A stretch of 64,000 bases of DNA from Myxococcota bacterium (GTDB lineage Bacteria; Myxococcota_A; UBA9160; UBA4427), in assembly GCA_965250285.1 (NCBI GenBank), contig OZ252299.1, forward strand, positions 5,216,001 through 5,280,000, written 5' to 3'. This document shows positions 14,997 to 62,933 of this stretch, piece after piece; the stretch's first letter is position 1; the number at the start of each line of letters is the position of its first letter. Under the pieces are notes generated by a model. The model worked only from the letters and a program-made list of their open reading frames with translations. It was not told where the DNA came from and searched no databases. A program made the position numbers and the translations under genes.

Positions 14997-15039
14997 CGCA
15001 CACGTCCACTTTGGGTTGAAACGAGCGGGCCGAGGCGGG

Positions 15040-15203
15040 TTCGCATTCTGGGGCCGTCGTCCTCAGACTGCGTCGGGCCGGCTGTGCGGGATTGGTGTGT
15101 CTTCGCTTCGTGCGGGCGCGCGGGCGCGCGGGCGCGCGGGCGCGCGGGCGTGCGGGTGGCGCTGGCCCGACTTCGATTGCGGGCGCCGGCCCCAGAATGC
15201 GAA
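15040..15203 (+). repeat. Dispersed hairpin element copy R1 (subfamily A) with internal (GCGGGCGC)n tandem repeat
   Basis: TTCGCATTCTGGGGCCG...CGGCCCCAGAATGCGAA terminal inverted repeat; CGTCCTCAGA and TTGCGGGCG cores. Confidence 0.9.
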
Positions 15204-18262: not shown

Positions 18263-18273
18263 GCTCGTCCGCC

Positions 18274-18454
18274 GGTTTCTCAGGGCAGGGCGCCTTCTCG
18301 CCGGTCGCGCGTCGGGTTCTCGGGGCAGGGCGCGTTCTCGCCGGTCGCGCGTCGGTTTCTCAGGGCAGGGCGCCTTCTCGCCAGGCGCGCGTCGGCTTCT
18401 CAGGGCAGGGTCCCTTCGTACCGGGCGCGCGTCGAGTTCTCAGGGCAGGGCGCC
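18274..18454. repeat. 40-bp tandem repeat, about 4.5 units
   Basis: Unit approx. GGTTTCTCAGGGCAGGGCGCCTTCTCGCCGGTCGCGCGTC at exact 40-bp period. Confidence 0.92.
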
Positions 18455-21247: not shown

Positions 21248-21289
21248 TCGGCGGGGCCCTCGTCTGCGTTCGCGAGGGGGGTGCATGGG

Positions 21290-21424
21290 TCGCGTTTTCG
21301 GGGGTGTCGTCCTCAGACTACGGCTCGCTGGCTTTGCGGCGGCCCTTCGTTTGCGCCCGGGGCGAGCGCCGGGGTGGTGTTGGCGCTCGCGTTCAACTTG
21401 CGGGCGCCACCCCCGAAAACGCGA
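21290..21424 (+). repeat. Dispersed hairpin element copy R2 (subfamily B)
   Basis: TCGCGTTTTCGGGGGTG...CACCCCCGAAAACGCGA with the conserved cores. Confidence 0.9.
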
Positions 21425-21561: not shown

Positions 21562-21686
21562 TTCTTGTGGGTGACGGCCGCGCGTCCGAGGCAGGCCTCG
21601 TACATGCAACCGTGCATCGAAGTGGGCGTAGGCAGTTCGTTTCCGTACGGCTTGCCCGCTGCAGTCTGAGGACGACACCTCCGAGA
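21562..21686 (-). repeat. Decayed inverted copy R2' of the hairpin element
   Basis: TCTGAGGACGACACCTCCGAGA at 21665-21686; degenerate partner arm TTCTTGTGGGTGACGGCCGC at 21562. Confidence 0.6.
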
Positions 21687-21817
21687 TCACCGCTTGCGCC
21701 GCCCATCTTCTCGAAGTCGACTCCGGTCCAATCGCTTCGCGAGCAACGGCTTGCAGAGAGCGGGGCGTGGTAGGGTGATCGGGTGCGTCGTTCACCCGGC
21801 GCCAGGTGGGAGAGTCG

Positions 21818-26310: not shown

Positions 26311-26537
26311 TGCCCGGGTCGGCTTTTCGGGGGTGTCGTCCTCAGATTCCGGCTCGCTGGCTTTACGGGGATGGGGCGTTTTCGCTCGGAGCGGGGGTGC
26401 GGTGGCGCTTTGGCGCCCGCAAGTCGAAGGCGGGCCAGCCCTCGCAAGACGCCCCGCCCAAAACGCAAACGGGCCGACTCCGTAGAGCCGGCCCGCCTGA
26501 GTCTGAGGACGACACCCCCGAAAACGCGACCCGGGCA
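26311..26537. repeat. Composite hairpin element R3 (forward half-copy fused to an inverted copy)
   Basis: TTTTCGGGGGTGTCGTCCTCAGA...TCTGAGGACGACACCCCCGAAAA outer inverted repeat, extended by TGCCCGGGTCG/CGACCCGGGCA. Confidence 0.88.
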
Positions 26538-32667: not shown

Positions 32668-32691
32668 GTAGGCGTGGGCTGGGTGCTCGGG

Positions 32692-32827
32692 TCGGCTTTT
32701 CGGGGGTGTCGTCCTCAGATTCCGGCTCGCTGGCTTTACGGGGACGGGGTGTTTTCGCTCGGAGCGGTCGGGGGAGCTGGTGTTGGCGCTCGCCTCCAAC
32801 TTGCGGGCGCCACCCCCGAAAAGCCGA
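32692..32827 (+). repeat. Dispersed hairpin element copy R4 (subfamily B)
   Basis: TCGGCTTTTCGGGGGTG...CACCCCCGAAAAGCCGA. Confidence 0.9.
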
Positions 32828-37995: not shown

Positions 37996-39579
37996 TTGAC
38001 GCGAGCGAACGCCATCGAGCTCTTGCAAGCCTGGCAAGCCGAGCACGGACACGTCGACGAACCCGCGCTGCGTGAGATCGCGCGCACGCATCTGATTCCG
38101 CTCTACGAGCTGCAGGGGCTCGTCTCGTTCTATCCCCACTTTCGTTCGACGTCGCCGCCCGATGTCGAGATCGCCGTGTGTCGCGACCTGAGCTGTGCGA
38201 TGCGCGGGGCCGACGCCCTGCGCGGGCGGCTCGAGGCGGCCGCAGCCAAGAGCGATTCGAGCGTCGAGCTGCATTCGGTCTCGTGCCTCGGTCGCTGCGA
38301 TGCGGCGCCGGCCTGTCTGCTCGGTGACGAGCCCGTCGGTCTCGACGCCGTGGCTTCGGCGCTCGGTCTCGCGGCCGACAGCCTCGCCGAGTTCGACGTC
38401 GCGATGCCCTCGACGCCCGACGACGGCTTTGCGAGCGACCCCTACGCAGACGTCTCCGAGCGCTACGGGGGCCTGCGCGCGCTCGCGGCCTCGGGTGACA
38501 CGGCTGCGCTGATCGATCGCATCGAGGCGAGCGGTCTGCGCGGCATGGGAGGGGCGGGCTTCTCGACCGGCTCGAAGTGGCGCTTCGTGGCCGAGGCCGA
38601 AGTGAAAGCCGGCGAAAAGACGGCGATCTGCAACGCCGACGAGAGCGAGCCCGGCACGTTCAAGGATCGTGAGATCCTCGCCCGCCTGCCGCATCTCGTC
38701 GTCGAGGGTCTCGCGCTCGGCGGGCTCTGCGTCGGGGCCGAGCGCGGCATCGTGTTCGTCCGCCACGAGTACGCGCCCGAAACGCGCGCTCTGCGCGGCG
38801 AGCTCGAGCGAGCGCGTGCTTTGGGTGCCATCGGGCCCGACGTCTTCGGCAGCGGACGCGCGTTCGAGGTCGATGTCTTCGTCTCGCCCGGCGGATACAT
38901 CCTCGGTGAAGAGACGGCGCTGCTCGAAGCGCTCGAGGGGCGCCGCGGTGAACCGCGCAACAAGCCCCCCTTCCCGGGCATCGAGGGCTTGCGGGGTGCG
39001 CCCACGCTCATCAACAACGTCGAGACGCTCTGCGCCGTTCCGCGCATCGCCCACGGCGCCTCGGCCGATCTCAAGTTCTTCAGCGTGAGCGGTGACGTGG
39101 AGCGTCCAGGCGTGCACGAGGTGCCCCTCGGTACGCCGCTCAGCGCCCTGATCGAGCGCTGCGGAGGGCTGCGTGAAGGCCGGTCGCTGCTCGCGTTCCT
39201 GCCCGGTGGCGCCAGCACCGGGTTTCTCGGTGCCGAGCACGTCGACCTGCCGCTCGACTGGGATCCGCTCCGCGAGGCCGGCTCGGCGCTCGGCAGCGGC
39301 GCGGTGATCGTCGTGGCCGAAGGCGCCGACCTGCGCGCACTCGCGGGCAACCTGACGGCGTTCTTTCGCAACGAGTCGTGTGGCAAGTGCGTGCCGTGTC
39401 GCATCGGCACCGAGCGAGCGGTGAAGATGATCGAGGACGACGGTCCACTCGACGCGACGCGGCTGCGCGCCCTGGCCGAGCTGCTCGCCGACACGTCGAT
39501 CTGCGGCCTCGGGCAGGCCGCGCTGAACCCGATCACGAGCGTTCTCGAGCGCTTCGATGTCGGCGGGGCATCGTCATGA
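37996..39579 (+). CDS. Fused NuoE-NuoF-like diaphorase subunit of NAD-dependent formate dehydrogenase
   Basis: 2Fe-2S 'CRDLSC...CLGRC', 'GLRGMGGAGF', 'NADESEPGTFKDR', 'ESCGKCVPCRIG...SICGLG'; TTG start after GAGGAG. Confidence 0.88.
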   Translation: MTRANAIELLQAWQAEHGHVDEPALREIARTHLIPLYELQGLVSFYPHFRSTSPPDVEIAVCRDLSCAMRGADALRGRLEAAAAKSDSSVELHSVSCLGRCDAAPACLLGDEPVGLDAVASALGLAADSLAEFDVAMPSTPDDGFASDPYADVSERYGGLRALAASGDTAALIDRIEASGLRGMGGAGFSTGSKWRFVAEAEVKAGEKTAICNADESEPGTFKDREILARLPHLVVEGLALGGLCVGAERGIVFVRHEYAPETRALRGELERARALGAIGPDVFGSGRAFEVDVFVSPGGYILGEETALLEALEGRRGEPRNKPPFPGIEGLRGAPTLINNVETLCAVPRIAHGASADLKFFSVSGDVERPGVHEVPLGTPLSALIERCGGLREGRSLLAFLPGGASTGFLGAEHVDLPLDWDPLREAGSALGSGAVIVVAEGADLRALAGNLTAFFRNESCGKCVPCRIGTERAVKMIEDDGPLDATRLRALAELLADTSICGLGQAALNPITSVLERFDVGGASS

Positions 39580-42392
39580 GCGCGACCGAACCGATTCACG
39601 TGCGTGCGCCGGTCACCCTCGAGATCGACGGGCGGTCGGTCACGGTCGAAGCGGGGACGTCGCTCTACGACGCGATCGTGCAGTCGGGGGGCGACGTGCC
39701 GGTGCTCTGCCACGACCCCAAGCTGCGGCCGGTCGGCGTGTGTCGCGTATGCTCGGTCGAGGTCGAAGGAGCACGCACCCTGGTGGCTTCGTGCGTGCGT
39801 GATGCCGAGCCGGGCATGGTCGTGCGCACGCAGAGCGAGCGCGTGCGCCGCGCGCAGACGGGTCTGGTCGAGCTGCTCATGGCCGAGCAGCTCGAAGCGT
39901 CGCGCCGCGAAACCGAGACGGGCGACGACCTGCTCTTCGATCTCGCGCGCGCACTCGACGTCGATGCAGCGCCGCGGTCCACGCGCGCGCGCCCGGTCGA
40001 CGATTCGTCACCGGTGATCCACGTCGATCACCAGGCCTGCATCCTGTGCGATCGCTGCATTCGAGCCTGCGACGAGGTGCAGTGCAATCACGTGATCGGG
40101 CGAACGGGCAAGGGGGGCAGCGCGCGAATCGCCTTCGATCTCGATCAGCCGATGGGCGAGTCGACGTGCGTGAGCTGCGGCGAGTGCGCGGCGGCCTGCC
40201 CGACGGGCGCGCTCGTCGATCAGGGCCTGCAGGCGCCCCTTCGGCCGCGTGAGGTGCTCGAGCCGGTCGACTCGGTCTGCCCGTACTGCGGAGTTGGGTG
40301 CGCGGTGCGATACCACGTCGATCGCGACGCCAACCAGGTCGTCTTCGCCGAAGGCCGAAGCGAGCGTGGCAATCAGGGTCGGCTCTGCGTGAAGGGGCGC
40401 TACGGCTGGGACTACTCCGGCCACGCGCATCGCCTCACGAAGCCGCTGATCCGCGTCGACTACCCGAAGCGTGCGCTGTCGACCGAGGTGCAGGGGGCGC
40501 AGCGGAGGCGCGGCAAGCCGGGCGGCGTCGTCGACTACGACGAGGTGATGCCGGCCTTTCGCGAAGCCAGCTGGGAAGAGGCGCTCGATCTCGTAGCGGC
40601 TCGGCTCGGCGCGATTCGCGACACCGACGGCCCGTCGGCGCTCGCGGGCTTCGGTTCGGCCAAGTGCAGCAACGAAGAGGCGTATCTCTTCCAGAAGCTG
40701 GTGCGCGTCGGCTTCGGCACGAACAACGTCGATCACTGCACGCGGCTATGCCACGCCTCGAGCGTGGCTGCGCTGCTCGAGATGATCGGCTCGGGTGCCG
40801 TCACGACGAGCTACGGCGACGTCGTCAATGCCGAGCTGGCGCTCGTCACTGGCAGCAACGCGAGCGCGAACCATCCGGTCGCTGCGACGTTCTTCAAGCA
40901 GGCGGCGGCCGCGGGCACCAAGCTTCTGATCGTCGACCCTCGCTGGACGCCCCTTTGCGACCACGCCTGGCGCTTCTGCCAGATTCGATCGGGCACCGAT
41001 GTCGCCTTCTACAACGCGATGATGCACGTGATCATCGAAGAGGGTCTCGTCGACGAGGCGTACGTTCGCGCGCACACGCGCGACTTCGAGCGCGTCGCCG
41101 AGAACGTGCGCGACGTGACACCCGAGCGCGCAGCGGCGATCTGCGGCGTGCCTGCCGAGACGATCCGCGAGGTCGCTCTCGAGTACGGCCGCGCGAAGGG
41201 GGCGATCACGTACTGGGGCATGGGCATGAGCCAGCACGTGCACGGCACCGACAACTGCCGCTGCATCATCTCGCTCGCCTTGATGACGGGTAATATCGGT
41301 CGCCACGGCGCGGGGCTGCACCCTCTGCGCGGACAGAACAACGTGCAGGGGGCAAGCGACGCGGGCCTGATCCCGATGGTCTTCCCCGACTATCAGCGCG
41401 TCGACGACGCCGAGGTGCGCGCGAAATTCGAGGCGGCGTGGGGCGTCGAGCTCGATGGCGAGCCGGGGTTGACCGTCGTCGAGATCATGAAGGCGGCCGG
41501 GCGGGGCGAGATCAAGGGCATGTACATGCTCGGCGAGAACCCGTTTCTCAGCGATCCCGACACGAACGCGGTGCGCAAGGCCCTCGCGAGCCTCGACTTC
41601 CTCGTGGTGCAGGACATCTTTCTCACCGAGACGGCCGAGTTCGCCGACGTCGTGCTGCCGGCCACGAGCCAGCTCGAGAAGTCGGGCACGTACACGAACA
41701 CCGATCGGCGCGTGCAGCTCGGTCGCCCCGTCGTCACGCCGCCCGGCGAGGCGCGCCTCGACTGGCAGATCATCCAACAGCTCTCGACCCGGCTCGGCTA
41801 CGCCATGGCGTACGAATCGACCGAGCAGATCTTCGACGAGATGACCGCGCTCACGCACGCGTACCAGGGTCTCTCCCACGACCTGCTGGGCGCCGACGGC
41901 AAGCTCTACCCCTGCGACGATCCCGAGCACGAAGAGGGCACCGAGGTCATGTTCGGCGACGGCTTCCCCACCGAGGACGGGCGCGCGCGCTTCGTGCCCG
42001 CCGTGCACGCGGGCGCCGACGAGCTGCCCGACGCGCAGTACCCGTTCGTGCTCGTGACGGGTCGTGTGCTCGAGCACTGGCATACTGGTGTGATGACCCG
42101 CCGGGCCAAGGCCCTCGCGGCCATCGAGCCCGAGGCGTTCGCCGACCTGAACGAAGACGATGCGGCTCGCCTCGGGGTCGCGACCGGCGACTGGGTGCGC
42201 ATCGCGTCGCGTCGCGGTGAGATTCGACTCGCTGCGCGGGTGGGGACGAGCGTGCAGCCGGGCTCGGTCTTCGTGCCGTTCCACTTTCGCGAGGCCGCGG
42301 CGAATCTGTTGACGAATCCGCGGCTGGATCCGGATGGGAAGATTCCGGAGTTCAAGTTTGCGGCGGTGACGGTGGAGGCGGATCGGGGGTGA
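39576..42392 (+). CDS. fdhF: Formate dehydrogenase alpha subunit (Mo/W-bisPGD, Cys ligand)
   Basis: 'CPYCGVGC', 'NNVDHCTRLCHAS', 'LRGQNNVQG', 'IPEFK'. Confidence 0.93.
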   Translation: MSATEPIHVRAPVTLEIDGRSVTVEAGTSLYDAIVQSGGDVPVLCHDPKLRPVGVCRVCSVEVEGARTLVASCVRDAEPGMVVRTQSERVRRAQTGLVELLMAEQLEASRRETETGDDLLFDLARALDVDAAPRSTRARPVDDSSPVIHVDHQACILCDRCIRACDEVQCNHVIGRTGKGGSARIAFDLDQPMGESTCVSCGECAAACPTGALVDQGLQAPLRPREVLEPVDSVCPYCGVGCAVRYHVDRDANQVVFAEGRSERGNQGRLCVKGRYGWDYSGHAHRLTKPLIRVDYPKRALSTEVQGAQRRRGKPGGVVDYDEVMPAFREASWEEALDLVAARLGAIRDTDGPSALAGFGSAKCSNEEAYLFQKLVRVGFGTNNVDHCTRLCHASSVAALLEMIGSGAVTTSYGDVVNAELALVTGSNASANHPVAATFFKQAAAAGTKLLIVDPRWTPLCDHAWRFCQIRSGTDVAFYNAMMHVIIEEGLVDEAYVRAHTRDFERVAENVRDVTPERAAAICGVPAETIREVALEYGRAKGAITYWGMGMSQHVHGTDNCRCIISLALMTGNIGRHGAGLHPLRGQNNVQGASDAGLIPMVFPDYQRVDDAEVRAKFEAAWGVELDGEPGLTVVEIMKAAGRGEIKGMYMLGENPFLSDPDTNAVRKALASLDFLVVQDIFLTETAEFADVVLPATSQLEKSGTYTNTDRRVQLGRPVVTPPGEARLDWQIIQQLSTRLGYAMAYESTEQIFDEMTALTHAYQGLSHDLLGADGKLYPCDDPEHEEGTEVMFGDGFPTEDGRARFVPAVHAGADELPDAQYPFVLVTGRVLEHWHTGVMTRRAKALAAIEPEAFADLNEDDAARLGVATGDWVRIASRRGEIRLAARVGTSVQPGSVFVPFHFREAAANLLTNPRLDPDGKIPEFKFAAVTVEADRG

Positions 42393-42403
42393 GTGGCCGG
42401 GGG

Positions 42404-42536
42404 TTCGCATTCTGGGGGCGGCGTCCTCAGACTGCGTCGGGCCCGCCTTGCCGCGTTGAATCGATGTCGCCGGAGGCGCCGCGTCTTGCTCGGGCTGGCC
42501 CGACTTCGATTGCGGGCGCCGCCCCCAGAATGCGAA
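42404..42536 (+). repeat. Dispersed hairpin element copy R5 (subfamily A)
   Basis: TTCGCATTCTGGGGGCGGCG...CGCCGCCCCCAGAATGCGAA. Confidence 0.92.
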
Positions 42537-42606
42537 GTCGGATCGCCTCGGTCGCAACGCATCGTTGGCGCAGACTCGAGGCTCCTTTGGATGGGGTAAA
42601 GGGGCG

Positions 42607-43878
42607 CTAGAAGCGGTCGAGGTGCCAGGTGGCGGAGAGGAGGCCGAGGCGGAAGGTGGGGCAGTCGGTCGGGCCGGGGAGGGTGAGGCTCGTCGTTCGC
42701 TCGCCCTCGGCCGGGATGTCGGCGACGTCGACGGCGGCACCGGTCTCGCCGCAGTCGATCTCGATCGTGGCCGTGGCGACGGCGCGCGGCGCGCGGTTGC
42801 CGATGGTCACATCGAACTCGAGACGTTCGCCGCCGTGGTTCACGCCCCGCGCTTTGAGGTCGAGCCAGGGGCGAATGTCGTGTCGCCGATCGCCGGGGCT
42901 CGGGTCGAGGTGGATCCGCTTTCGATCGTGATCGATCTCGACGCGGAACTGGCTCGAGACGTTCAGGCCGAGCAGCCCCGACCGGCCGGGCGCCGTGCAC
43001 GAAGGGCACGCCGCCACCGTCACCCACTCGACCGGCGCGTCGCCGAGCCAGACGGCGTCGAGCAGCACGAGCGGCGCGTCGATCGGGCCGCCAGCCGTGT
43101 TGAGGGTCACCCGCGGCGCATTGCGCGGCACGTCGACGTCGATCTCGGCCAGGGCGTCGGGCGTCACCGTGGTGAACGAGGCGCCCGTATCGAAGATCAT
43201 GCGGAACCGGTCGCCGAAGTCGGGCCCATCCAGAGCGACCTCGACATCGAGCTCGCGGCCGTCGCCTCGGTAGGCCAGCACGACGGGCGCGGTCGGTGCG
43301 GGATCGGGGCGCGCGACCGGGGTGCGGGTCGAGGGGCGGGGCGCCGTCTCGTCGGGCTGCGGCTTCGAAGCGGAGGGTGACGTCGCGGCCTGGGGCGTGG
43401 CGATCGCGAGCGGCTCGGGGGGCTTCTCGCCCTCGGCGCCGAGCCAGCTGGCCAGGGTGCCGACGAAGCTCCCGGCCGGCTCACGCAGCGGGCCGAGGTG
43501 CGCCGCGAAGAGCACGTCGGCGCCGCGGCGCGCCGCTTCACGGCGCTCGCCGGGGGCGAAGCCCGGCACGGTCAGGAGGAGGGCGATTGTCCAGATCCAG
43601 GCCGAGAGGACTCGGGCGACCCGGCGGCCGGCGTCCGATGAGCCGGCGCCGATCGCGCGAAACCCCGATGCGAGCCCGACGACCGGCAACAGCGCCACCG
43701 CGAGCGCCGCGGTGAGGGCGAGCGACGTCGATGCCCCCGTTTGCAGCCCGAGGCCCAGCAGTACGCAGGTCGCGACGCCAAGGGGTACCCCGAGAACCAC
43801 GGCCTCGACCGCGACGTCGAAGGCACGGATGGGACGCGGTGAGCGAGTGGATCCGAGCCGACTCATGGGACGGTGCAT
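42607..43878 (-). CDS. Membrane-anchored retropepsin-like (clan AA) aspartic protease
   Basis: Three TM helices, Pro-rich linker, 'FDTGAS', 'TAGG', 'GLLGLN'. Confidence 0.82.
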   Translation of the reverse strand: MHRPMSRLGSTRSPRPIRAFDVAVEAVVLGVPLGVATCVLLGLGLQTGASTSLALTAALAVALLPVVGLASGFRAIGAGSSDAGRRVARVLSAWIWTIALLLTVPGFAPGERREAARRGADVLFAAHLGPLREPAGSFVGTLASWLGAEGEKPPEPLAIATPQAATSPSASKPQPDETAPRPSTRTPVARPDPAPTAPVVLAYRGDGRELDVEVALDGPDFGDRFRMIFDTGASFTTVTPDALAEIDVDVPRNAPRVTLNTAGGPIDAPLVLLDAVWLGDAPVEWVTVAACPSCTAPGRSGLLGLNVSSQFRVEIDHDRKRIHLDPSPGDRRHDIRPWLDLKARGVNHGGERLEFDVTIGNRAPRAVATATIEIDCGETGAAVDVADIPAEGERTTSLTLPGPTDCPTFRLGLLSATWHLDRF

Positions 43879-44045
43879 CTCCCTCGCGCGGTCGCTGTCT
43901 CGCGTGCTGGCTCCGGCGCTCGCTGCCGGGCCGGCGCCGGGCCCGCTCGCTCACCCGATCAGCCGGATCGTGGGGCGACGACCGGTCCTTCATGGATGCT
44001 GCCCTCGAACGTATCGTTCCGGCACCCTGCTAACATCCCGCGATC

Positions 44046-44924
44046 ATGCGTAGCCGGACCGACCGACTCCGACAGCGCTCCCTCGTCATCCTGGTCACGC
44101 TGCTGGTTTCGGCCCAGACCGGGTGCTCGCTCATCATGGGGCGGGTCACTTCGGGCGTGGCCGACAGCCTGACGGTGGCCGTGCTGGCCCAGGATGATCC
44201 CGAGCTCGTGCGCGATGGTGCTCCTGCGTACCTGATCGCGCTCGATGGCTTGATCGAGGGAGATCCCGACAACCTCGACCTGCTGATGAGCGGCGCGAGC
44301 CTCTACGGCTCGTATGCCGGCGCGTTCGTCGAAGATCCCGAGCGGGCCGCGCGGCTGGCGACGCGCGCTCGCGGCTACGGCGACCGCGCGATCTGCGTGC
44401 GCAAGAAAGAGTTCTGCGGGCTCTCGGAGAAACCCTTCGACGAGTTCGTCCTCGCGCTCGATGACGTGAAAGAGAAGGATCTGCCCGCGCTCTACAGCTA
44501 CGGCAGCGCCTGGGCGGGCTGGATCCAGGCGAACTCGGCCGACTGGGCCGCCATCGCCGACCTGCCCAAGGTGCAGGCCGTCATGGAGAAAGTGGTCGAG
44601 CTCGACCCCGAGATCGAGGACGGCCAGGCGTGGATGTACCTCGGCGTGCTCTACACGCTGCGCCCCGCCTCGCTCGGTGGCAAGCCCGAGAAGGGCCGGG
44701 AGGCCTTCGAGCGCGCACTCGTCGTCTCGAACCGGCGTAATCTCTTCGTCCATGTGATGTACGCCAAGCAGTACGCCCGGCTCGTCTTCGACCAGGAGCT
44801 GCACGACGCGCTGCTCACCGAAGCGCTCGAGGCCGATCCGGTCGAGCCCGATCTCACGCTCATCAATACGATTGCCCAGCAGCAGGCGGCCGACCTGCTC
44901 GAAGACGGCAAGGACTACTTCTGA
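44046..44924 (+). CDS. TRAP transporter TatT-family lipoprotein
   Basis: Lipobox 'QTGC', 'DPELVRDGAPAYL', 'LGGKPEKGR'; precedes dctPQM. Confidence 0.85.
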   Translation: MRSRTDRLRQRSLVILVTLLVSAQTGCSLIMGRVTSGVADSLTVAVLAQDDPELVRDGAPAYLIALDGLIEGDPDNLDLLMSGASLYGSYAGAFVEDPERAARLATRARGYGDRAICVRKKEFCGLSEKPFDEFVLALDDVKEKDLPALYSYGSAWAGWIQANSADWAAIADLPKVQAVMEKVVELDPEIEDGQAWMYLGVLYTLRPASLGGKPEKGREAFERALVVSNRRNLFVHVMYAKQYARLVFDQELHDALLTEALEADPVEPDLTLINTIAQQQAADLLEDGKDYF

Positions 44925-44999
44925 TCCACTCTCAAGCCGCGCGCGGCCGCCGCCTCTGAGCGCACGGCCCGCCGCGTGATCCATTTTCGAGGAGACGAC

Positions 45000-46037
45000 A
45001 TGCTGATCTCGAGAGAGGCCCGGACGCGGGCGCTCGCCTGGGCCCTCGCGCTCTCGCTGGTGGTGGGTGCCGCCGGCGCAGCCACCGCCAAGACCCTGAA
45101 GCTCGCCACCGTCATGCCCGACGGCAGCAGCTGGCTCGTCGAGATGCGCGCCGCAGGCAAGCAGATCGAGACCGACACCGACGGTCGGGTCAAGATCAAG
45201 TTCTATCCCGGCGGCGTCATGGGCAACGACAAGACCGTGATGCGCAAGATCCGCGTGGGCCAGCTCCACGGCGGCGCCTTCACCAGCGGTGCCCTCGCGC
45301 CGGTCTATCCCGACATCGACCTCTACAGCCTGCCGCTCCTCTTTCGCACGTTCGACGAGGTCGACTACGTGCGCGAGCGCACCGACGACACGCTCAAGGA
45401 AGGGCTCGAGCAGGCCGGCTTCGTGCCGCTCGCGCTGACCGATGGCGGCTTTGCCTACATCGCGTCGCAGGAGCCCCTGCGCCAGGTCGAAGATCTCTCG
45501 GGCGCGAAGGTGTGGATGCCCGAAGACGACATCATGAGTGAAACGGCCTTCGAGGTCGCGGGCGTGGCGCCCGTGCCGCTGCCGATCGCCGACGTCTACA
45601 CGGCGCTGCAGACCGGCCTCGTCGACACCGTAGCGGCGCCGCCGGCAGGCTTCATCGCCTTTCAGTGGCACACGAAGGTCAAGTACTTCACCGACGTGCC
45701 GTTGATGTATCTGATCGGCATCCTCGCCGTCGACGCGAAGTCGTTCTCGAAGCTCTCGGCCGAAGACCAGCAGGTGGTGCGAAGCCGCTTCGCAGAGGCT
45801 GCGGTGAAGCTCGACGCCGAAAACCGCAGTGGTGACGAGAACGCGCGCGACGCCCTCAAGAAGCAAGGCATCGAGTTCATCGCGGCTTCGAGCGACGAAG
45901 AGGTGGCGCGCTGGCAGCAGATGAGCGAAGACACGCGCGCGAAGCTGCGCGAGCTCGATCGCTATGACGACGGTCTGATCGACCGGATCCTGCAGTACCT
46001 CGACGAGTATCGATCGGGCACGGCCGCGAACCAGTGA
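45000..46037 (+). CDS. dctP: TRAP transporter substrate-binding protein
   Basis: 'LKLATVMPDGSSW', 'YPGGVMG', 'VYTALQTGLVD'. Confidence 0.9.
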   Translation: MLISREARTRALAWALALSLVVGAAGAATAKTLKLATVMPDGSSWLVEMRAAGKQIETDTDGRVKIKFYPGGVMGNDKTVMRKIRVGQLHGGAFTSGALAPVYPDIDLYSLPLLFRTFDEVDYVRERTDDTLKEGLEQAGFVPLALTDGGFAYIASQEPLRQVEDLSGAKVWMPEDDIMSETAFEVAGVAPVPLPIADVYTALQTGLVDTVAAPPAGFIAFQWHTKVKYFTDVPLMYLIGILAVDAKSFSKLSAEDQQVVRSRFAEAAVKLDAENRSGDENARDALKKQGIEFIAASSDEEVARWQQMSEDTRAKLRELDRYDDGLIDRILQYLDEYRSGTAANQ

Positions 46038-46582
46038 GTCTCGAAGATCAAGCGGAGCATCTGGGGGACGATCCGCCCGGCGCCGACGTCGAAGCGGGTC
46101 TCATTGGTGTCGTGCACAAGATCGAGGATGCGTTTCTCTCTCTCTTGCTCGGCGTCATGGTGTTGCTCGCGCCACTCCAGATCTTCTTGCGCAACTTCTT
46201 CGACGAAGGCGTGACCTGGGGCGATCCGCTGCTCCGGGTGCTCGTGCTCTGGGTCGGTCTGCTCGGCGCCGTCAGCGCCGCGCGCGGCGACCGACACATC
46301 ACGATCGACGTGCTCTCGCGCTTCGTCGGCGACAAGCTGCGTCTCTCGCTGCGCATCGTGACGAGTCTCTTCACCGTCATCGTCTGCGGGCTCGTCGCCT
46401 GGTACAGCGGTGAGTTCGTCGCCCTCGAGCGCGAGTTCGAGAGCGAGGCCTTCGCGGGGATGCCCGCCTGGATCATGCAGGTCGTGATCCCCTTCGCGTT
46501 CGCCGTGATCGGCCTGCGCTACCTCGCTTACGCCGTCGGCGACGGCATGCGGCTCGCGCGCGGGGAGGGCCCCGGCGAATGA
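46034..46582 (+). CDS. dctQ: TRAP transporter small permease
   Basis: Four TM, 'QIFLRNF', 'HITIDV'. Confidence 0.88.
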   Translation: MSLEDQAEHLGDDPPGADVEAGLIGVVHKIEDAFLSLLLGVMVLLAPLQIFLRNFFDEGVTWGDPLLRVLVLWVGLLGAVSAARGDRHITIDVLSRFVGDKLRLSLRIVTSLFTVIVCGLVAWYSGEFVALEREFESEAFAGMPAWIMQVVIPFAFAVIGLRYLAYAVGDGMRLARGEGPGE

Positions 46583-47853
46583 TCTCGCTGCTGCTCATTC
46601 TGCTCGCGCTCGCTGGCGCGCCGCTCTTCGCCGTGATCGCCGCAAGCGCGATGCTCGGCTTCTCGAGCGAAGACGTCGACCTCTCGGTGATGGGGATCGA
46701 GATCTACCGCCTGGCCGAGATGCCGGTGCTGCTGGCGATCCCGCTCTTCACGTTCGCGGGCTATCTGCTCGGCGAGAGCGACGCCCCGAAGCGGCTCGTC
46801 CGCCTGACCAATGCACTGCTCGGCTGGCTCTCGGGCGGTCTCGCGATCGTATCGCTCGCCGCGTGCGCGCTCTTCACGGCCTTCACGGGTGCGTCGGGTG
46901 TGACGATCGTCGCGCTCGGTGCGTTGCTCTACCCCGCGCTTCGCCAGGCGAACTACAGCGAGAAGTTCAGTCTGGGTCTCGTCACGACGTCGGGTAGCCT
47001 GGGCCTGCTCTTCGCGCCGGCGCTGCCGCTCATTCTCTACGGTGTCGTCGCGCAGCAGATGGATCTCGATGAGCCCGTGCGGATCGACGACCTCTTCGCG
47101 GCCGGGCTGGTACCGGGTCTGCTGATGGTGGTGGCGCTCTCGATCTACAGCATGTGGGCCACGCGCGGCGGTGTCGAAGAAGAGCGCCAGGCCTTCACGT
47201 GGGGGGAGGCCTGGGGGGCGATCAAGGACGCTGGCTGGGAGATCCCCCTGCCGCTCGTCGTGCTGGGTGGCATCTACGGTGGCTTCTTCGCGCTGAGCGA
47301 AGCGGCGGCGGTCACGGCGCTCTACGTGCTCGTCGTCGAGGTCGGCATTCGGCGCGAGATCAAGCTGACCGCGCTGCCCGCCGTGATGCGAGAATCGATG
47401 GTGCTCGTCGGAGCCATCGTCGTGATCCTCGGCGTCTCGCTCGCGTCGACCAACTACATGATCGACACCGAGGTGCCGACCCGGCTCTTCGACGTGATCC
47501 GCGCGCACATCGACAGCAAGCTCACATTCCTGATGCTGCTCAACATCTTCCTGCTCGCGCTGGGGATGATGCTCGACATCTTCTCGGCGCTGGTCATCGT
47601 GGTGCCGATTATCCTGCCGATCGCCATCGGCTACGGCATCCATCCCGTGCATCTGGGCATCATCTTTCTCGCCAACATGCAGATCGGCTACATCACGCCG
47701 CCGGTCGGGATGAACCTCTTCATCGCGAGCTATCGCTTCGAGAAGCCGGTGCTCGAGGTCTACAAGGCGACGGTGCCGTTCTTCGTGATCCTGTTGGTCA
47801 GCGTGCTGATCATCACGTACTGGCCGGCGCTCTCGCTCTTCTTGATCCAGTAG
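46579..47853 (+). CDS. dctM: TRAP transporter large permease
   Basis: 'LAIPLFTFAG', 'GIHPVHLG', 'ITPPVGMNLF'. Confidence 0.93.
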   Translation: MISLLLILLALAGAPLFAVIAASAMLGFSSEDVDLSVMGIEIYRLAEMPVLLAIPLFTFAGYLLGESDAPKRLVRLTNALLGWLSGGLAIVSLAACALFTAFTGASGVTIVALGALLYPALRQANYSEKFSLGLVTTSGSLGLLFAPALPLILYGVVAQQMDLDEPVRIDDLFAAGLVPGLLMVVALSIYSMWATRGGVEEERQAFTWGEAWGAIKDAGWEIPLPLVVLGGIYGGFFALSEAAAVTALYVLVVEVGIRREIKLTALPAVMRESMVLVGAIVVILGVSLASTNYMIDTEVPTRLFDVIRAHIDSKLTFLMLLNIFLLALGMMLDIFSALVIVVPIILPIAIGYGIHPVHLGIIFLANMQIGYITPPVGMNLFIASYRFEKPVLEVYKATVPFFVILLVSVLIITYWPALSLFLIQ

Positions 47854-47869
47854 CGGCCTCGCGGTGGGG

Positions 47870-49114
47870 TCAGGCTTTGCTCTCGGCTGCGGCTGCGGCT
47901 TCGGCTGCCGGCGCACCCGGCACGCGCAGCCAGGCGAGCAGCACGGCGGCGATGCCGATCGCACCGACGAAGAGCTGCAGCGCGGTCACGTAGCTGCCCG
48001 TCGTGTCGCGGCTCCAGCCTGCGATCGGGTAGCCCAGCATCACCAGCACGCTGATCGCGGGTGAGATGAGGCCCATCGCGCGGCCGAAGCTCGCGACGCC
48101 GAACACCGCGGCGACGAGCGCGCCCCAGATCGGCAGCATGCCGCCGGTAGCGAGCCCCATGAGCACGGCTGCGACATAGAGCACCCACTGCTTGGGCTCG
48201 ATCGCGAGCAGCGCTATGCCAACGCCAGCGAGGAGCAGCGCGAGCCAGAGGCCGACACGAAGCGGAATGCGATCGGCGAGCGCACCGAAGGCGAGTTTGC
48301 CGATGAAGCCGAAGAAGGCGATGGTGCTCAGCAGCTGCGTCGCGAGCGAGGCGTCGAACGAGAGCGTCTCGACGTACTTGCCGAGGTTGCTCATCACTGC
48401 GGTGTAGCTCATGAAGAGGAGCCCGAGGCAGAGGCTCATCAGCCAGTAGCCCGGCGCGCGCAGAATGTCGGGCGTCGTCCACGCCTCGCTCGGCGCGTTG
48501 GCAGCCGAGGGGGCGGCCGCATCGGCGCCGTCCGGGGTCGGCTGTGCCGGCGGATGATCTCGGAGCGCGAACACGAGCAGCGGCGCCACGGCCACCACCA
48601 CGGTCGCGGCCAGCGCGCGCATCGCGCCGCGCCAGCCGAATTCACCGATCCAGAGCTCGAGCAGCTGCGGCAGCACGACGCCGCCTACCGACGTGCCCAT
48701 CGCCGCGATGCCGAGGGCCTTGCCGCGATTCTCGTCGAACCAGCGAGAGACGACCGCCGAACCGGTGAGCGGCCCGAGCAGCGTGGCCCCGGTGCCGATC
48801 AGCAGCGCGAAGACCAACGCGAACTGCGTGACGCTGGTCGAGACCGACATCAGCATGAGTCCGGCCGCGAGCGAAGCGCAGCCGATCAGCATCAGGCCTC
48901 GCGCCGACCAGCGATCGACGAGCGGGCCGAAGAGCGGGGCCGATGCGATGCCGGCGAGCCCGGCGCCGGACATGCTCCACATGACGTCGGTGACGCTGGC
49001 GTCGAACGCCTCCTGAACGGGCACGACGAAGAGCGGAAACCCGTACGAATAGAAGCCAGACATGAAGAGCTGCGCGACGAAGACGCTCGCGACGATCCAC
49101 CAACCCGAGTGCAT
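47870..49114 (-). CDS. MFS transporter (MCT/OFA-like)
   Basis: 12 TM, 'GPLVDRWSAR', 'RWFDENRGKALG'. Confidence 0.88.
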   Translation of the reverse strand: MHSGWWIVASVFVAQLFMSGFYSYGFPLFVVPVQEAFDASVTDVMWSMSGAGLAGIASAPLFGPLVDRWSARGLMLIGCASLAAGLMLMSVSTSVTQFALVFALLIGTGATLLGPLTGSAVVSRWFDENRGKALGIAAMGTSVGGVVLPQLLELWIGEFGWRGAMRALAATVVVAVAPLLVFALRDHPPAQPTPDGADAAAPSAANAPSEAWTTPDILRAPGYWLMSLCLGLLFMSYTAVMSNLGKYVETLSFDASLATQLLSTIAFFGFIGKLAFGALADRIPLRVGLWLALLLAGVGIALLAIEPKQWVLYVAAVLMGLATGGMLPIWGALVAAVFGVASFGRAMGLISPAISVLVMLGYPIAGWSRDTTGSYVTALQLFVGAIGIAAVLLAWLRVPGAPAAEAAAAAESKA

Positions 49115-49251
49115 TCGGTCTCGTCCTCGCTGGCCCTTCGGGCCGTGCACTGCACCGCCACGTGCGCCGCGCCGGTGGACGACGCGACGGCGCCGCGCCT
49201 CGCGTCGAGCCTAGTCGAAACCGGCGCCGGTCACATCGAGGACCGAAAGCC

Positions 49252-50517
49252 TCAGGTGAGTGTCTTCGCGGCGTGACGAGGCTCGGAGAGCACGAACGTC
49301 ATGGCGCCCGCGATCGTCAGGCTGAGCGCGACGAGGACGAACGTGAGCGTGTAGCCCGTCGCATCGATCAGCACGCCGAACAGCGGCGACGCGGCGAGCG
49401 CGACGACCGAGGACACCTGCGTGAGCGAGAGCGCCTGCGGGTGCTGGTCGCGGGGCGTGATCTCGAGGACGTAGTTGGCGAAGACGCGCAGGACCACCGG
49501 CGTGAGCCCGACCCCGACGAAGATCAAGGCGTAGAGCCGTCGGCCCAGCGCAGGCTCGAGGTGGGCGATGAAGAGCGCGAGGAGCGGGGTCGCGGCGCTC
49601 GCGAAGATCGACACGCGCAGACCGAGGCGATTGCCGGCCCGGTCGACCAGCGGGCCGACGAAGAGCGTGATGACGGCCATCGACAGGTTCTGCACGACGA
49701 CCCAGACCATCCAATCGACGCCGCCCAGGCCGAGACGGTCGCGGGCCAGCGCCTGATAGTGGGGCAGGAGCGCCAGCGAAGTAATGAAGAAGACGTTCAG
49801 CACGACCGCGCGGCGCAGGTCGACGTTCGTGCGCAGCAAGGTCACAGCCACGCGAAACGCGCCGGGCTCGTCATCGGTGGTGGGCTCGGGCGGGTCGGGG
49901 TGCTCCTTCAGGAACGGAGTCGACGCGGCGGCGAGTGAGAGCAACAACCCGACGAACAGAAAGGACCAGGCGAAGCCGAGTGTGCCGGGCAGCTCGAGCC
50001 AGCCGGGGAGCAGCCACCACGCACACAGCGCAGCCAATGCGGCGCCCACCGACGTGCTCACCGCCATCAGGCGGCCGCGATGCTCGGGTGCGATCAGCTT
50101 GCCCTGAAGGCTGCCCTGGGCGTTGCCCCAGATGCCCGTCGAGACGAAGAACACCGCGTAGAGGGCGAGAAAGACCCAGACCAGCCAGGGCGGGGCGGCC
50201 TGCTCGCCGAGCACGAGCAGCAGGAGGCCGATCGCACCGAACGGCACCGCCATGGCCGCCGAGGCGCCGAAGTAGACGCGCTTCTTGAACGGCGCGCGGT
50301 GAATGCGAGCCGCCAGCAAGAAGGGCGGGACCGACTGTGCCACGCGATTCACGATGGGCAGCAGGCCGCGAACCCAACCCGCGCCCGACACGGCATCGAC
50401 GAAGGCCGGCACGATGACGCTCTCAGTCTTGAAGATCCAGCCGATGCGACCGAGGACGAAGTTGGCCGCCATGATCGCCGCGTTGCGCGGCTCGTGCGGG
50501 GCGGCTTCGCGATCCAC
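49252..50517 (-). CDS. MFS transporter
   Basis: About 12 TM, 'GPLVDRAGNR'; coupled to the argS stop. Confidence 0.8.
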   Translation of the reverse strand: MDREAAPHEPRNAAIMAANFVLGRIGWIFKTESVIVPAFVDAVSGAGWVRGLLPIVNRVAQSVPPFLLAARIHRAPFKKRVYFGASAAMAVPFGAIGLLLLVLGEQAAPPWLVWVFLALYAVFFVSTGIWGNAQGSLQGKLIAPEHRGRLMAVSTSVGAALAALCAWWLLPGWLELPGTLGFAWSFLFVGLLLSLAAASTPFLKEHPDPPEPTTDDEPGAFRVAVTLLRTNVDLRRAVVLNVFFITSLALLPHYQALARDRLGLGGVDWMVWVVVQNLSMAVITLFVGPLVDRAGNRLGLRVSIFASAATPLLALFIAHLEPALGRRLYALIFVGVGLTPVVLRVFANYVLEITPRDQHPQALSLTQVSSVVALAASPLFGVLIDATGYTLTFVLVALSLTIAGAMTFVLSEPRHAAKTLT

Positions 50518-52256
50518 TACATGCGATCGGGTGCGGCGACGCCCAGGAGACCGAGACCGGTCTTCAGCATCGATCGAGCGGCGACGACCAGCGCGAGGCG
50601 CGCGTCGCGCAGCGCGTCCTCGGCACCGAGCACGTGGTGGTCGCGCAGATAGCTGTGGATGTCGCCTGCGAGGTCGATCATGAGCTTGGTGATCACGCTC
50701 GGCTCGTTCTGGGCCGACGCGCGCTCGAGGGTCGGCCCGAACTCGAGCATGGTGAGCAGCACCTGCTCGGCGTCCTCGAGCAGCGCCCAGTCGACGTTCG
50801 TCGGGTCGAGGGGGACGCCGCCCTGCTCGTCGAGGGCGCCGGCGTTGCGCAGGATGCCCGAGAGCCGCGCCACGGCGAACTGGACGTACGGGCCGGTTTC
50901 GCCATCGAAGTTCAGCATGGCGTCCCAGTCGAACTTCACGTCCTTGATGCGCGCGTTCTTCAGATCGTTGAAGACGATGGCCGACACGCCCACCTGCTCG
51001 GCGACGTCGTCGGCGTTCTCGAGGTCGGGGTTCTTCTCGGCGATGATGCGACGCACGTTCGCCACTGCCTCGTCGAGCACCTCATCGAGAAAGATCGCGT
51101 TGCCGCCTCGCGTGGCGAACTTCTCCCACTTCCCCGTGTCTTCGTTCTTCGCGAGGATCAAGCCGAAGGGCACGTGCTCGATGTGTTCGGCCTGGGGCAA
51201 CCCCATTTTCGAGATGACTTCGCGCAGCTGCTGAAAGTGCAGCTTCTGTTCACTGCCGACGACATAGAGCGCGCGATCGAAGTGAAACGTCTCCATGCGG
51301 TAGAAGATCGCGGCGAGATCGCGCGTCGCATAGATCGTCGTGCCATCGCTCTTTCGCAGGATGCAGGGCGGCATGTCGTCGCCGAAGGCGACGACCTCGG
51401 CGCCCTCGCTGGTCTCGAGGATGCCCGCTTCGGCAACGCGCGCGACGGCGGCCTCCATCTTGTCTTCGTAGAAGCTCTCGCCGGTGAAGTGGTCGAAGTC
51501 GACGCCGAGGCGAGCATAGGGGCCTTCGAACGCGGCCAGCGAAATGTCGCGCAGGCGGTTCCAGAGCTGGCGCTCGGCGTTGTCCTCGCCCGACTCGAGG
51601 CGCCGGAAGTTCTCGGCGCTCTCTTCATCGAGGGCCCGATTCGTCTTGGCTTCGCGCCCGTAACGCACGTAGATCTCGAACAGGTGCCGCATGGGGCTCG
51701 CTTCGAGCTCGGCGTCGGATCCCCAGTGCCGGAAGGCCGTGATGATCTTGCCGAACTGGCTGCCCCAGTCGCCGAGATGATTGATGCCGTGCACCTCGTG
51801 CCCGAGATGTCGGTGGATCTTGCAGAGCGCGCTGCCGATCACGGTCGAGCGCAGGTGACCCATGTGGAAGGGCTTGGCGATGTTCGGTGACGAGTAGTCG
51901 ATGACGATCACTTCGCCGGTCGACTTCGCCGGCCCGAAGGGGGCGACCCCGTCGCGGATGCCGGTGATCACATACTCGGCGAGGGCCGAGCGCCGGAAGC
52001 GGAAGTTGACGAAGGGACCCGTCGCGACGGCCGACTCGAGCACGGCGTCGGGCGTGAACGAAGCGGCCAGCGCCTCGGCGATCTTCGGGGGCGCCTGCTG
52101 GCGCAGCTTGGCGAGCGGGAAGCAGCCGAGGGCGACATCGCCGAACTTGCGATCCTTCGGCGGCTGCAGGCGCAGCTGAGCCGCGACCTCGGGGGGGACA
52201 TCGCCCACCGCGGCCTCGACCAGCTGCTCGAGATGTGTCGTCGGATCCCCGCCCAC
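50517..52256 (-). CDS. argS: Arginine--tRNA ligase
   Basis: 'DYSSPNIAKPFHMGHLRSTVIG', 'NHLGDWG', 'YATRDLAA', 'GETGPY'. Confidence 0.97.
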   Translation of the reverse strand: MGGDPTTHLEQLVEAAVGDVPPEVAAQLRLQPPKDRKFGDVALGCFPLAKLRQQAPPKIAEALAASFTPDAVLESAVATGPFVNFRFRRSALAEYVITGIRDGVAPFGPAKSTGEVIVIDYSSPNIAKPFHMGHLRSTVIGSALCKIHRHLGHEVHGINHLGDWGSQFGKIITAFRHWGSDAELEASPMRHLFEIYVRYGREAKTNRALDEESAENFRRLESGEDNAERQLWNRLRDISLAAFEGPYARLGVDFDHFTGESFYEDKMEAAVARVAEAGILETSEGAEVVAFGDDMPPCILRKSDGTTIYATRDLAAIFYRMETFHFDRALYVVGSEQKLHFQQLREVISKMGLPQAEHIEHVPFGLILAKNEDTGKWEKFATRGGNAIFLDEVLDEAVANVRRIIAEKNPDLENADDVAEQVGVSAIVFNDLKNARIKDVKFDWDAMLNFDGETGPYVQFAVARLSGILRNAGALDEQGGVPLDPTNVDWALLEDAEQVLLTMLEFGPTLERASAQNEPSVITKLMIDLAGDIHSYLRDHHVLGAEDALRDARLALVVAARSMLKTGLGLLGVAAPDRM

Positions 52257-52344
52257 GGGTGGCGCCTCCGGTTCTGGAAGCGCCCACCGTTAGCTCAACT
52301 CCGGATCGCGCGTCCACTTGAGGGAGCGGGGTGGGTTGCACGGG

Positions 52345-52476
52345 CGCGTTTTCGGGGGTGGCGTCCTCAGACTCCGGCGGGCCGGCCTTGCGGGCGGCGT
52401 TCTTTGGGGGGGCCATCGTGAGATGAGAGACTGGCTGGCCCGCCTTCGACTTGCGGGCGCCACCCCCGAAAACGCG
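52345..52476 (+). repeat. Dispersed hairpin element copy R6
   Basis: CGCGTTTTCGGGGGTGGCG...CGCCACCCCCGAAAACGCG; inner stem GGCGGGCC/GGCCCGCC. Confidence 0.9.
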
Positions 52477-52673: not shown

Positions 52674-52808
52674 TCGGGTTTTCGGGGGTGGCGCCCGCAA
52701 GTTGGAGGCGAGCGCCACCCCCACCCCGGCGCCCGCCCCGAGCACAAACGAAGGGCCGCCGCACAGCCCGCGAGCCGGAATCTGAGGACGACACCCCCGA
52801 AAACCCGA
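52674..52808 (-). repeat. Dispersed hairpin element copy R7 (inverted relative to R6)
   Basis: TCGGGTTTTCGGGGGTG...CACCCCCGAAAACCCGA; loop nearly identical to R2. Confidence 0.9.
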
Positions 52809-52934
52809 CCCCAGCACCCGCCCCCACAATCTCCACACACCGCCTCGTCCCGCCCCCACCCGCCCCCCGACCGTTCCGGTACGATTGCCCCCGACAGGCT
52901 CTCTTCCCCCCCCTGTGCGACCGCCGGAGCCACC

Positions 52935-60136: not shown

Positions 60137-60149
60137 TGGGGTGCTCGGG

Positions 60150-60282
60150 TTCGCATTCTGGGGGCGGCGTCCTCAGACTGCGTCGGGCCGGCTTTGCGGT
60201 GTTGGGGCGTCTCCGCTCCGTGCGATGGGTCCTGCCTGGAATGGCCCGACTTCGATTGCGGGCGCCGCCCCCAGAATGCGAA
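60150..60282 (+). repeat. Dispersed hairpin element copy R8 (subfamily A)
   Basis: Arms identical to R5, different loop. Confidence 0.92.
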
Positions 60283-62806: not shown

Positions 62807-62933
62807 GCCGCGCGCCCCGAGAGAATCGACGCCGCGCCCTGGGGATGCGCTGCAGAACTCGCTCCCCGCATGCGAGCGCTGCGCTGTAGCGGAAGCGTCC
62901 CGGCCCTGGCACGCCGGACTGGGCAGATGGTCC

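Follow-up and report, generated by a model that had tools for sequence, protein, structure and literature searches.

Long-resident copies of a hairpin repeat in a Myxococcota bacterium are surrounded by a polar halo, a zone of about 500 bases in total in which C is scarce, and G and T abundant, on the strand carrying the element. The halo begins abruptly some 105 nt 5′ of the hairpin and, on the 3′ side, fades gradually by about +300 nt. It was noticed in the window, a 64,000-nt stretch of contig OZ252299.1, and an oriented metaplot across the whole genome (G000) showed that the skew follows element orientation. The synonymous-site G/T excess upstream of the 23 family-A hairpins oriented in G000 was +0.218 (n = 456 sites, z 10.7). 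Twelve of these copies are members of pairs and 11 are solo; downstream of the solo copies the excess was +0.206. With two family-B copies lacking terminal inverted repeats (TIRs) added to the 11, solo copies showed positive skew downstream in 13/13 cases and upstream in 12/13, tandem and non-convergent gene contexts included. Between the members of inverted pairs, the skew roughly cancels.

The junction between fdhF and a convergent protease gene illustrates the effect (Table 1). The first-pass annotation had counted a single C-ending codon among the last 29 sense codons of fdhF, and this was reproduced exactly (21 end in G, 7 in T). Its interior comparison stretch, starting at 41883, does contain 20/29 C-ending codons but proved to be a C-rich pick, as the whole ORF has 462/1005 and the expectation for the tail, conditioned on amino acids, is 15.1/29. 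Even so, the fdhF tail (z = −6.2) has the lowest C3 among 4,500 predicted gene ends. On the far side, 25 of the last 27 protease codons end in C on their own strand (z = +3.8). The element-free convergent junction at 47853/47870 is ordinary, with 12/29 and 14/29 C-ending codons, and none of 4,479 element-free gene ends has ≤3 or ≥25 C-ending codons of 29. The skew flips beside the inverted copy R7, where 52808-52880 contains 45 C and 10 G. Similar skew had been claimed around R1, R4 and R8; R4 and R8 are G-rich upstream, but R1 has no upstream halo (−0.08) and is skewed downstream (+0.34). The proposed extent of roughly 100 nt was too small, since the zone reaches from about −105 upstream to +250-330 downstream. 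Contigs of run X1, which may be the source sample, showed 0 differences over 41000-42430 and 42508-52370; the X1 read-mapping variant table was dominated by paralogues.

Table 1. Hairpin copies, halos and neighbouring genes in the window
Feature	Position	Strand	Remarks
R1, family-A hairpin, halo downstream only	15037..15202	+	
Family-A hairpin	21287..21423	+	partner is a partial inverted arm at 21653-21695
Nested pair	26316..26532	.	+ left arm at 26316, inverted full copy 26397-26532
R4, family-A hairpin, halo both sides	32689..32826	+	
fdhF-like molybdopterin oxidoreductase ORF	39378..42392	+	start may be 39576
R5 upstream halo: fdhF C-terminal codons and short spacer, C-depleted on element strand	42296..42400	+	edge ~105 nt before hairpin
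R5, family-A bulged hairpin, solo copy	42401..42535	+	
R5 downstream halo: spacer and 3′ codons of convergent aspartyl-protease-domain gene, C-ending on own strand	42536..42790	+	
Aspartyl-protease-domain gene	42607..43878	-	G001 3′ codons G/T-ending beside inverted hairpin copy
Element-free convergent junction, control, no halo	47754..47969	.	
Family-A hairpin, + member of inverted pair	52341..52476	+	
R7, inverted copy	52675..52811	-	halo C/A-rich on + at 52812-52911
R8, family-A hairpin with halo	60147..60281	+	

The hairpins fall into two families with a common core. The repeat unit is ~135 nt, and tandem 135-nt units are present. Family B occurs inside deletion derivatives of an IS5 element; these derivatives are bounded by TIRs and flanked by CTAG, and the 1,191-bp parent element is intact in genome G059. 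A related hairpin is found within the right end of an IS5 element. A right TIR was found at 24/28 family-B loci and the left end as well at 18, with a CTAG-type target duplication; the autonomous homologue matches the IS5 model NF033581 at 323 bits (cut-off 140). Inspection of the flanks of family-A copies by eye revealed no recognizable IS5 TIRs or target duplication; some copies share another upstream end motif, and family-A copies occupy orthologous places in three species. Alignment of 58 A and B sequences gave 11 invariant columns, an invariant T-G pair in the stem (58/58) and compensatory changes at 11/15 stem pairs; because the stem sequences are related, the shuffle control of pairing is not a probability. 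The hairpin matched no Rfam covariance model. Our own covariance-model search of G000 (150 candidates scored) returned 61 copies, all from the known A and B sets, and missed variants revealed by skew; a skew scan alone disclosed four more hairpin variants and an integron. Outside the order, the family-B core gave 3 single matches in a 401-genome phylum sample, and of three collection scans, two gave 0 loci and one gave 15.

The age of the copies bears on the order of events. The flanks of seven IS5 copies in G059 are unskewed, 24 TIR-bearing miniature elements (MITEs) gave +0.022/+0.028 (not significant), and four TIR-less copies gave +0.159/+0.148. Young copies thus have little or no halo and decayed ones do have it, and the first-pass alternative of insertion into already skewed DNA is rejected by this series together with the orthologue flip described below, unless TIR-bearing copies choose targets differently. 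Ordinary replication or gene-end bias might still mimic a halo, as 16/23 family-A copies lie on the leading strand, which has a small G/T excess of its own. However, the seven lagging copies carry the halo too (+0.126 upstream; background −0.020), as do the 16 leading ones (+0.241; background +0.018), the halo skew is tenfold larger than the replichore term, and one gene end flips with element orientation between genomes. Target preference and background bias are therefore highly improbable sources of the halo.

That flip occurs at the protease gene, the 3′ end of which is C-ending in G000 and G/T-ending in the comparison genome G001, where the adjoining hairpin copy is inverted. Among fourfold sites of the halo to which no G001 element lies closer than 400 nt, 33 carry G on the element strand in G000 where G001 has C, and 9 show the opposite. 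When the exclusion is tightened to 600 nt, a clear G000-only direction survives just at 120-200 nt downstream (11 vs 1), with the remaining bins near balance. Synonymous divergence is raised near hairpins: within 200 nt, fourfold divergence exceeds distance-matched controls by +0.072 (919 sites, 47 genes; gene bootstrap 0.037-0.108). At 60-120 nt upstream of G001-only copies it is nearly two-way (29 vs 24), as an increase in rate predicts. In G001, the third species and G029 the halo reaches less far or is less pronounced, and fdhF of G001 is rich in C at 110-200 nt upstream of its own hairpin copy. One contig of low depth that covers the protease halo shows differences at 5/261 bases, similar to non-halo pieces, so the rate is not extreme. 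Beyond fdhF, G001 has two continuations that share 81% identity across ~820 nt, as local divergence could produce; we rejected them as rate evidence, since their 141-base shared part may be an assembly overlap.

The bodies of decaying MITEs give a view of the substitutions themselves. A consensus test found C>G at 75/1419 positions against G>C at 21/1264, alike for leading and lagging copies, with a drift towards G/T in 24/28 copies; the same test on attC sequences showed no such asymmetry. These copies are not independent, as shown by linkage between derived alleles, with 23 pairs reaching p<0.01 where 2 were expected. Counted as unique site-alleles, the excess is 37/94 vs 16/77 (p 0.012), and it is absent among singletons (18 vs 14). 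Eighteen family-A copies of the third species showed no C>G excess in the same consensus test (82/1345 vs 110/1596).

A parallel polar G-rich halo was found beside the inferred attI sites of integrons in the host's taxonomic family, where it tracks the orientation of the array and not the direction of intI; attC-like arrays are present elsewhere in G000. Recombination of attI on one strand is described in PMC5027507. The integrons thus share with the hairpins a polar G-rich zone at a site of strand-specific chemistry. Paired RYYYAAC / GTTRRRY boxes flank attC cassettes, whereas the hairpin alignment, on inspection, holds no such R boxes. As far as the portions seen of PMC5027507 and PMC5371416 extend, published integron skews are those of the attC sequences themselves and not of host genes beside attI.

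We favour, as the probable origin of the halo, a process at the hairpin that exposes one particular strand or resynthesizes it with errors. The hairpin would repeatedly single out its own strand to be nicked or left single-stranded, and error-prone resynthesis of that strand would build up a C-poor, G/T-rich zone. We infer that the halo is mutational, that the process would begin 5′ of the hairpin and follow the element strand in the 5′ to 3′ direction, and that most of the change would be direct C>G. The first-pass proposal of strand-asymmetric change after insertion withstood both tests, dependence on orientation and comparison with element-free gene ends; the chemistry is conjectural, and no nicking enzyme was found.

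Selection could instead have tuned the bases around a polar transcription terminator or RNA element, by way of a C-rich, G-poor Rho-loading strand with a C-poor opposite, or through avoided pairing with the hairpin. Rho loading is favoured by C-rich, G-poor RNA. Most copies lie just 3′ of stop codons, often between convergent genes, though some of these context labels may be wrong because genes were called with an in-house dicodon caller. The compensatory changes that keep the stem indicate that the structure is under selection. However, the halo tracks the element and not the gene arrangement, gene ends without an element show no C enrichment (mean z −0.15), the differences near G001-only copies run almost equally in both directions, and integron skew keeps to array orientation while intI direction flips. 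We regard tuning by selection as unlikely.

Two further explanations are each very unlikely. The halo might be decayed element DNA, spread outward by biased gene conversion or copying among copies. Decayed element end does make up much of the intergenic halo, copies in G001 and the third species share upstream and downstream motifs, G001 fdhF reads through into the element end, and linkage and tandem amplification are seen among copies. Yet the signal was measured at third codon positions in unrelated host genes that keep the amino acids of their orthologues. Other copies could not have donated such bases by conversion; this explanation fails for the coding part and may contribute to the intergenic part. 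Alternatively, non-template-strand damage beneath a very highly transcribed small RNA or R-loop over the element could give a sharp 5′ edge and a 3′ tail. A one-strand G/T excess is the sign expected. Against this, a promoter would be required at a fixed distance inside many unrelated genes, the hairpin has no Rfam match, and in the integrons it is the bottom strand that is G-rich, whereas cassettes are expressed in the other direction.

The hairpins resemble several known systems in part. Family B is like IS5-group MITEs, of which MITEPsy1 is reportedly an example, in its TIRs, CTAG flanks and autonomous IS5 homologue; family A differs in its lack of recognizable IS5 TIRs and its orthologous placement. 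The literature searched describes no flanking compositional halo for IS5-group MITEs. Replication- and transcription-associated asymmetries also give a G/T excess on the exposed strand, whereas this halo is confined to the neighbourhood of the repeat, has definite bounds and takes its direction from the orientation of the repeat. Diversity-generating retroelements produce hairpin-marked local change at gene 3′ ends; G000 has no reverse transcriptase, and the hairpin spectrum is led by loss of C and not by A-to-N change. With REP, BIME and REPIN sequences, as they appear in the portions seen of PMC3333891 and bioRxiv 10.1101/2021.07.10.451892, the hairpins share intergenic imperfect stems, invariant mismatches, variable centres, inverted doublets, tandem amplification and long vertical persistence. 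The same portions describe RAYT cutting of single-stranded DNA up- and downstream of REP over >400 nt, a scale like that of the hairpin halo, and report no flanking skew. The hairpins differ in having a unit of ~135 nt that is linked to an IS5 end and not to IS200.

Profile searches narrowed the candidates for a hairpin-reading protein. PF01797 (Y1_Tnp), the RAYT family, and PF00078 (RVT_1) had 0 matches in G000 and in G001 (83% complete), and PF01609 (DDE_Tnp_1) and PF03852 (Vsr) had none in G000. PF04986 (Y2_Tnp) also had no match in G000, but its control matched nowhere and absence is not established. With no transposase of the searched families left in G000, the reader is probably a host factor. 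IntI was rejected for this role, as the hairpin lacks attC boxes and a comparison by eye gave no convincing co-occurrence. MutS is present and uninformative. DnaE2, also present in G000, is no more than a candidate for the error-prone polymerase; in Caulobacter, G:C to C:G change depends on imuB/imuC, according to PMC3901139.

No description of such a polar halo was found in the literature searched. If it is mutational, a short cis-element, and not replication or transcription direction, would set a local directional mutation regime, and codon usage, divergence estimates and C-terminal protein evolution would be biased beside repeats. The halo would also provide a readout, from sequence alone, of which repeat strand is processed in vivo, a long-open question for REP-like repeats and MITE relics, and because integrons show a parallel halo, the idea can be tested directly where the enzymology is known. 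More tentatively, bacterial chromosomes might hold cis-acting 'mutator sites', one-strand-processed hairpins or recombination sites marked by a polar, G-rich footprint hundreds of bases long, taking in IS5-linked hairpins, attI and perhaps the palindromic repeats of other bacteria. Such footprints would rewrite neighbouring genes and would allow sites of single-strand DNA chemistry to be mapped with nothing but sequence.

The family-A hairpin copy R5 lies between fdhF and a convergent aspartyl-protease-domain gene. The first-pass annotation reported that C-ending codons make up 1 of the last 29 in fdhF, against 20 of 29 in an interior stretch, and 25 of 27 in the protease tail; our recount gave identical figures, and the counts at an element-free convergent junction (47853/47870 of the window) were, as stated there, ordinary. 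Genes were predicted with a simple dicodon caller on the 6.25-Mb single-contig genome (G000), and in 4,500 of them the terminal 29 codons were scored against an amino-acid-conditioned expectation. The fdhF tail shows the strongest C depletion among these gene ends (z −6.2), and the protease tail sits at percentile 99.96 for C-ending codons. None of the 4,479 element-free gene ends serving as control matches the C count of either tail.

This C-poor, G/T-rich zone on the element's own strand, the halo, has a defined shape. At 456 synonymous sites in the 120 nt upstream, the element-strand G/T excess is +0.218 (z 10.7); beyond that distance it is −0.008, and 15-nt bins place an abrupt rise near −105. 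The 11 solo family-A copies, which lack an inverted partner, show an excess of +0.206 in the 250 nt downstream, fading by ~+330. Dependence on element orientation, proposed from the window, holds genome-wide: the excess is +0.241 for leading copies (background +0.018) and +0.126 for lagging copies (background −0.020). Solo copies (11 family A, 2 decayed family B) are skewed downstream in 13/13 cases and upstream in 12/13, R1 being the upstream exception. Among them, two have a downstream gene in tandem and two an upstream gene directed away from the copy. Where two copies form an inverted pair, the mean skew between them is near zero. An unbiased genome skew scan placed known copies at 13 of its 30 top peaks, 13/13 with the expected sign. 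Among the peaks listed, the top one is an integron and four more are new hairpin variants; because skew led to the discovery of these variants, what they add as evidence is limited to the match between sign and motif orientation.

Profile searches identified 23 family-A left arms in G000, 21 with a right arm; the clustering of 13 of the 23 within 90 kb suggests local spread. Family-A copies occupy orthologous places in G000, the related genome G001 and a third species (~80–85% identical). Family B, with 38 cores at 28 loci in G000, is carried by IS5-type MITEs flanked by CTAG duplications and sits ~25 nt inward from their right end; among 193 genomes from the order, 20 contain its core. Another related genome, G059, carries an intact 1,191-bp IS5 bearing the hairpin (six of its seven copies are full length, and the two that were compared are identical). 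Families A and B have 11 invariant columns in common, including a T–G pair in 58/58 sequences, and compensatory change is seen at 11/15 stem pairs.

Locations of hairpin-related, integron and polymerase features. The hairpin variants (longer family C or divergent family A) came to light via skew; the covariance-model search did not recover them.
Feature	Location	Strand	Remark
Hairpin variant	G000:C1:3267245-3270605	-	
Hairpin variant	G000:C1:3457135-3457335	+	
Hairpin variant	G000:C1:2090060-2090215	-	
Hairpin variant	G000:C1:6064715-6064880	-	
Family-A cluster	G000:C1:5231000-5319000		5.23-5.32 Mb
Hairpin unit amplified in tandem inside MITEs	G000:C1:5764107-5764900 and seven other loci		period ~120-145 nt, up to four copies
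IS5-type MITE remnant	window 62825-62933		both ends kept, hairpin lost
40-nt tandem repeat	window 18265-18464		
R1 loop	window 15100-15156		holds 8-nt tandem repeat
C-rich stretch in G001 fdhF	L023:6-206		110-200 nt upstream of G001 copy
intI with strong skew	G000:C1:5462873-5463990 (L232)		skew scan; also family loci L225-L274
Large attC array	G000:C1:5463900-5510000		adjoins intI; 48 sites fit one pattern
Second attC cluster	G000:C1:109000-121000		near 0.11 Mb; at least 5 sites
dnaE2 with divergent dinB	G000:C1:2800000-2812000 (L279)		ImuB-like gene nearby

The halo develops after insertion. In G059, the sequence on either side of the IS5 copies is without skew (350 bases per bin), 24 MITEs bearing terminal inverted repeats (TIRs) give +0.022 and +0.028 (not significant), and four TIR-less family-B loci give +0.159 and +0.148. 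It is also weaker and shorter in relatives than in G000: 33 G001 and 22 third-species copies show +0.23 in the first 50 nt and +0.06 and 0.00 in the next 50, and there is little skew around six copies in the related genome G029. In G001 the copy adjoining the protease gene end is inverted, and G/T-ending codons there encode the same amino acids. Across 29 G001 regions, at halo fourfold sites farther than 400 nt from any G001 element, G000 has element-strand G where G001 has C 33 times and the reverse 9 times; when the exclusion is tightened to 600 nt, only the bin 120–200 nt downstream keeps a clear signal (11 to 1) and the rest are close to balanced.

One G001 fdhF stretch runs opposite to the halo (25/29 codons C-ending) and could represent the tail of an older copy lying in inverted orientation. 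Two further G001 loci (L021, L022; contigs C224, C237) both run on from the fdhF 3' end with element pairs 81% identical, followed by different genes; the fdhF reading frame there reads through into the element end, giving two differing C-termini.

In the comparison of G000 with G001, fourfold sites up to 200 nt from an element show divergence higher by 0.072 (bootstrap 0.037–0.108; 919 sites in 47 genes), with a peak at 60–120 nt (0.544 versus 0.414). Beside G001-only copies this divergence is nearly two-way, which fits a raised rate. Across 28 decaying MITE bodies, the ratio of C>G to G>C is 3.2, that of C>T to G>A 1.55 and that of A>G to T>C 1.6; the C>G excess is present on both replichores and at columns confirmed by the intact IS5 (57/1206 versus 18/992). 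Against this, singletons in the MITE bodies have a symmetric spectrum, derived alleles are linked to one another, and a consensus test did not show the C>G excess in the third species' copies. The protease halo on one low-depth contig showed no unusual divergence either. On balance, we regard directional change as well supported and a mutational cause of the halo as likely; selection for terminator context, the main rival, seems improbable.

The strongest skew peak in G000 covers the 3' half of an integron's integrase gene and extends to an attI-like site that precedes a co-oriented attC array. Thirty integrase loci of the family fall into a C-rich and a G-rich class, and 20 fetched more widely divide into 11 and 9, respectively. 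With attI positions and divergent attCs assigned by eye, 9/11 C-rich loci have attC-like matches downstream on the same strand (several weak) and 4/9 G-rich loci have attC-like repeats upstream on the opposite strand; none were seen at the other five, four of which end close upstream. Both classes can be described by one rule: outside the array, its bottom strand is the G-rich one, whatever the intI direction. In attI recombination, it is the bottom strand that is exchanged (PMC5027507).

For the hairpins, the account we lean towards is repeated processing of one strand, which would start ~100 nt 5' of the hairpin and run 3', with lesions or polymerase errors becoming fixed on the element strand. 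Through the invariant mismatches, the two hairpin strands would differ as substrates, much as the mismatch in REP makes its strands distinct for RAYT; cutting by RAYT spans >400 nt and affects both sides of the REP (PMC3333891). Family searches of G000 found no RAYT, IS5 or RT enzymes and no Vsr; an IS91-type enzyme gave no match, nor did the control for that search. G000 does have a DnaE2 gene with DinB and ImuB-like genes nearby, and in Caulobacter G:C to C:G change depends on imuB/imuC (PMC3901139). This set is a lead to candidate polymerase machinery for the halo, not evidence.

A full-text literature search, with most subscription papers and supplements outside its reach, returned no description of such a halo beside bacterial repeats or attI. 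The repeat adds a new member to an already known kind of element; its polar footprint, which is easy to test, represents a new form of strand-asymmetric sequence change.
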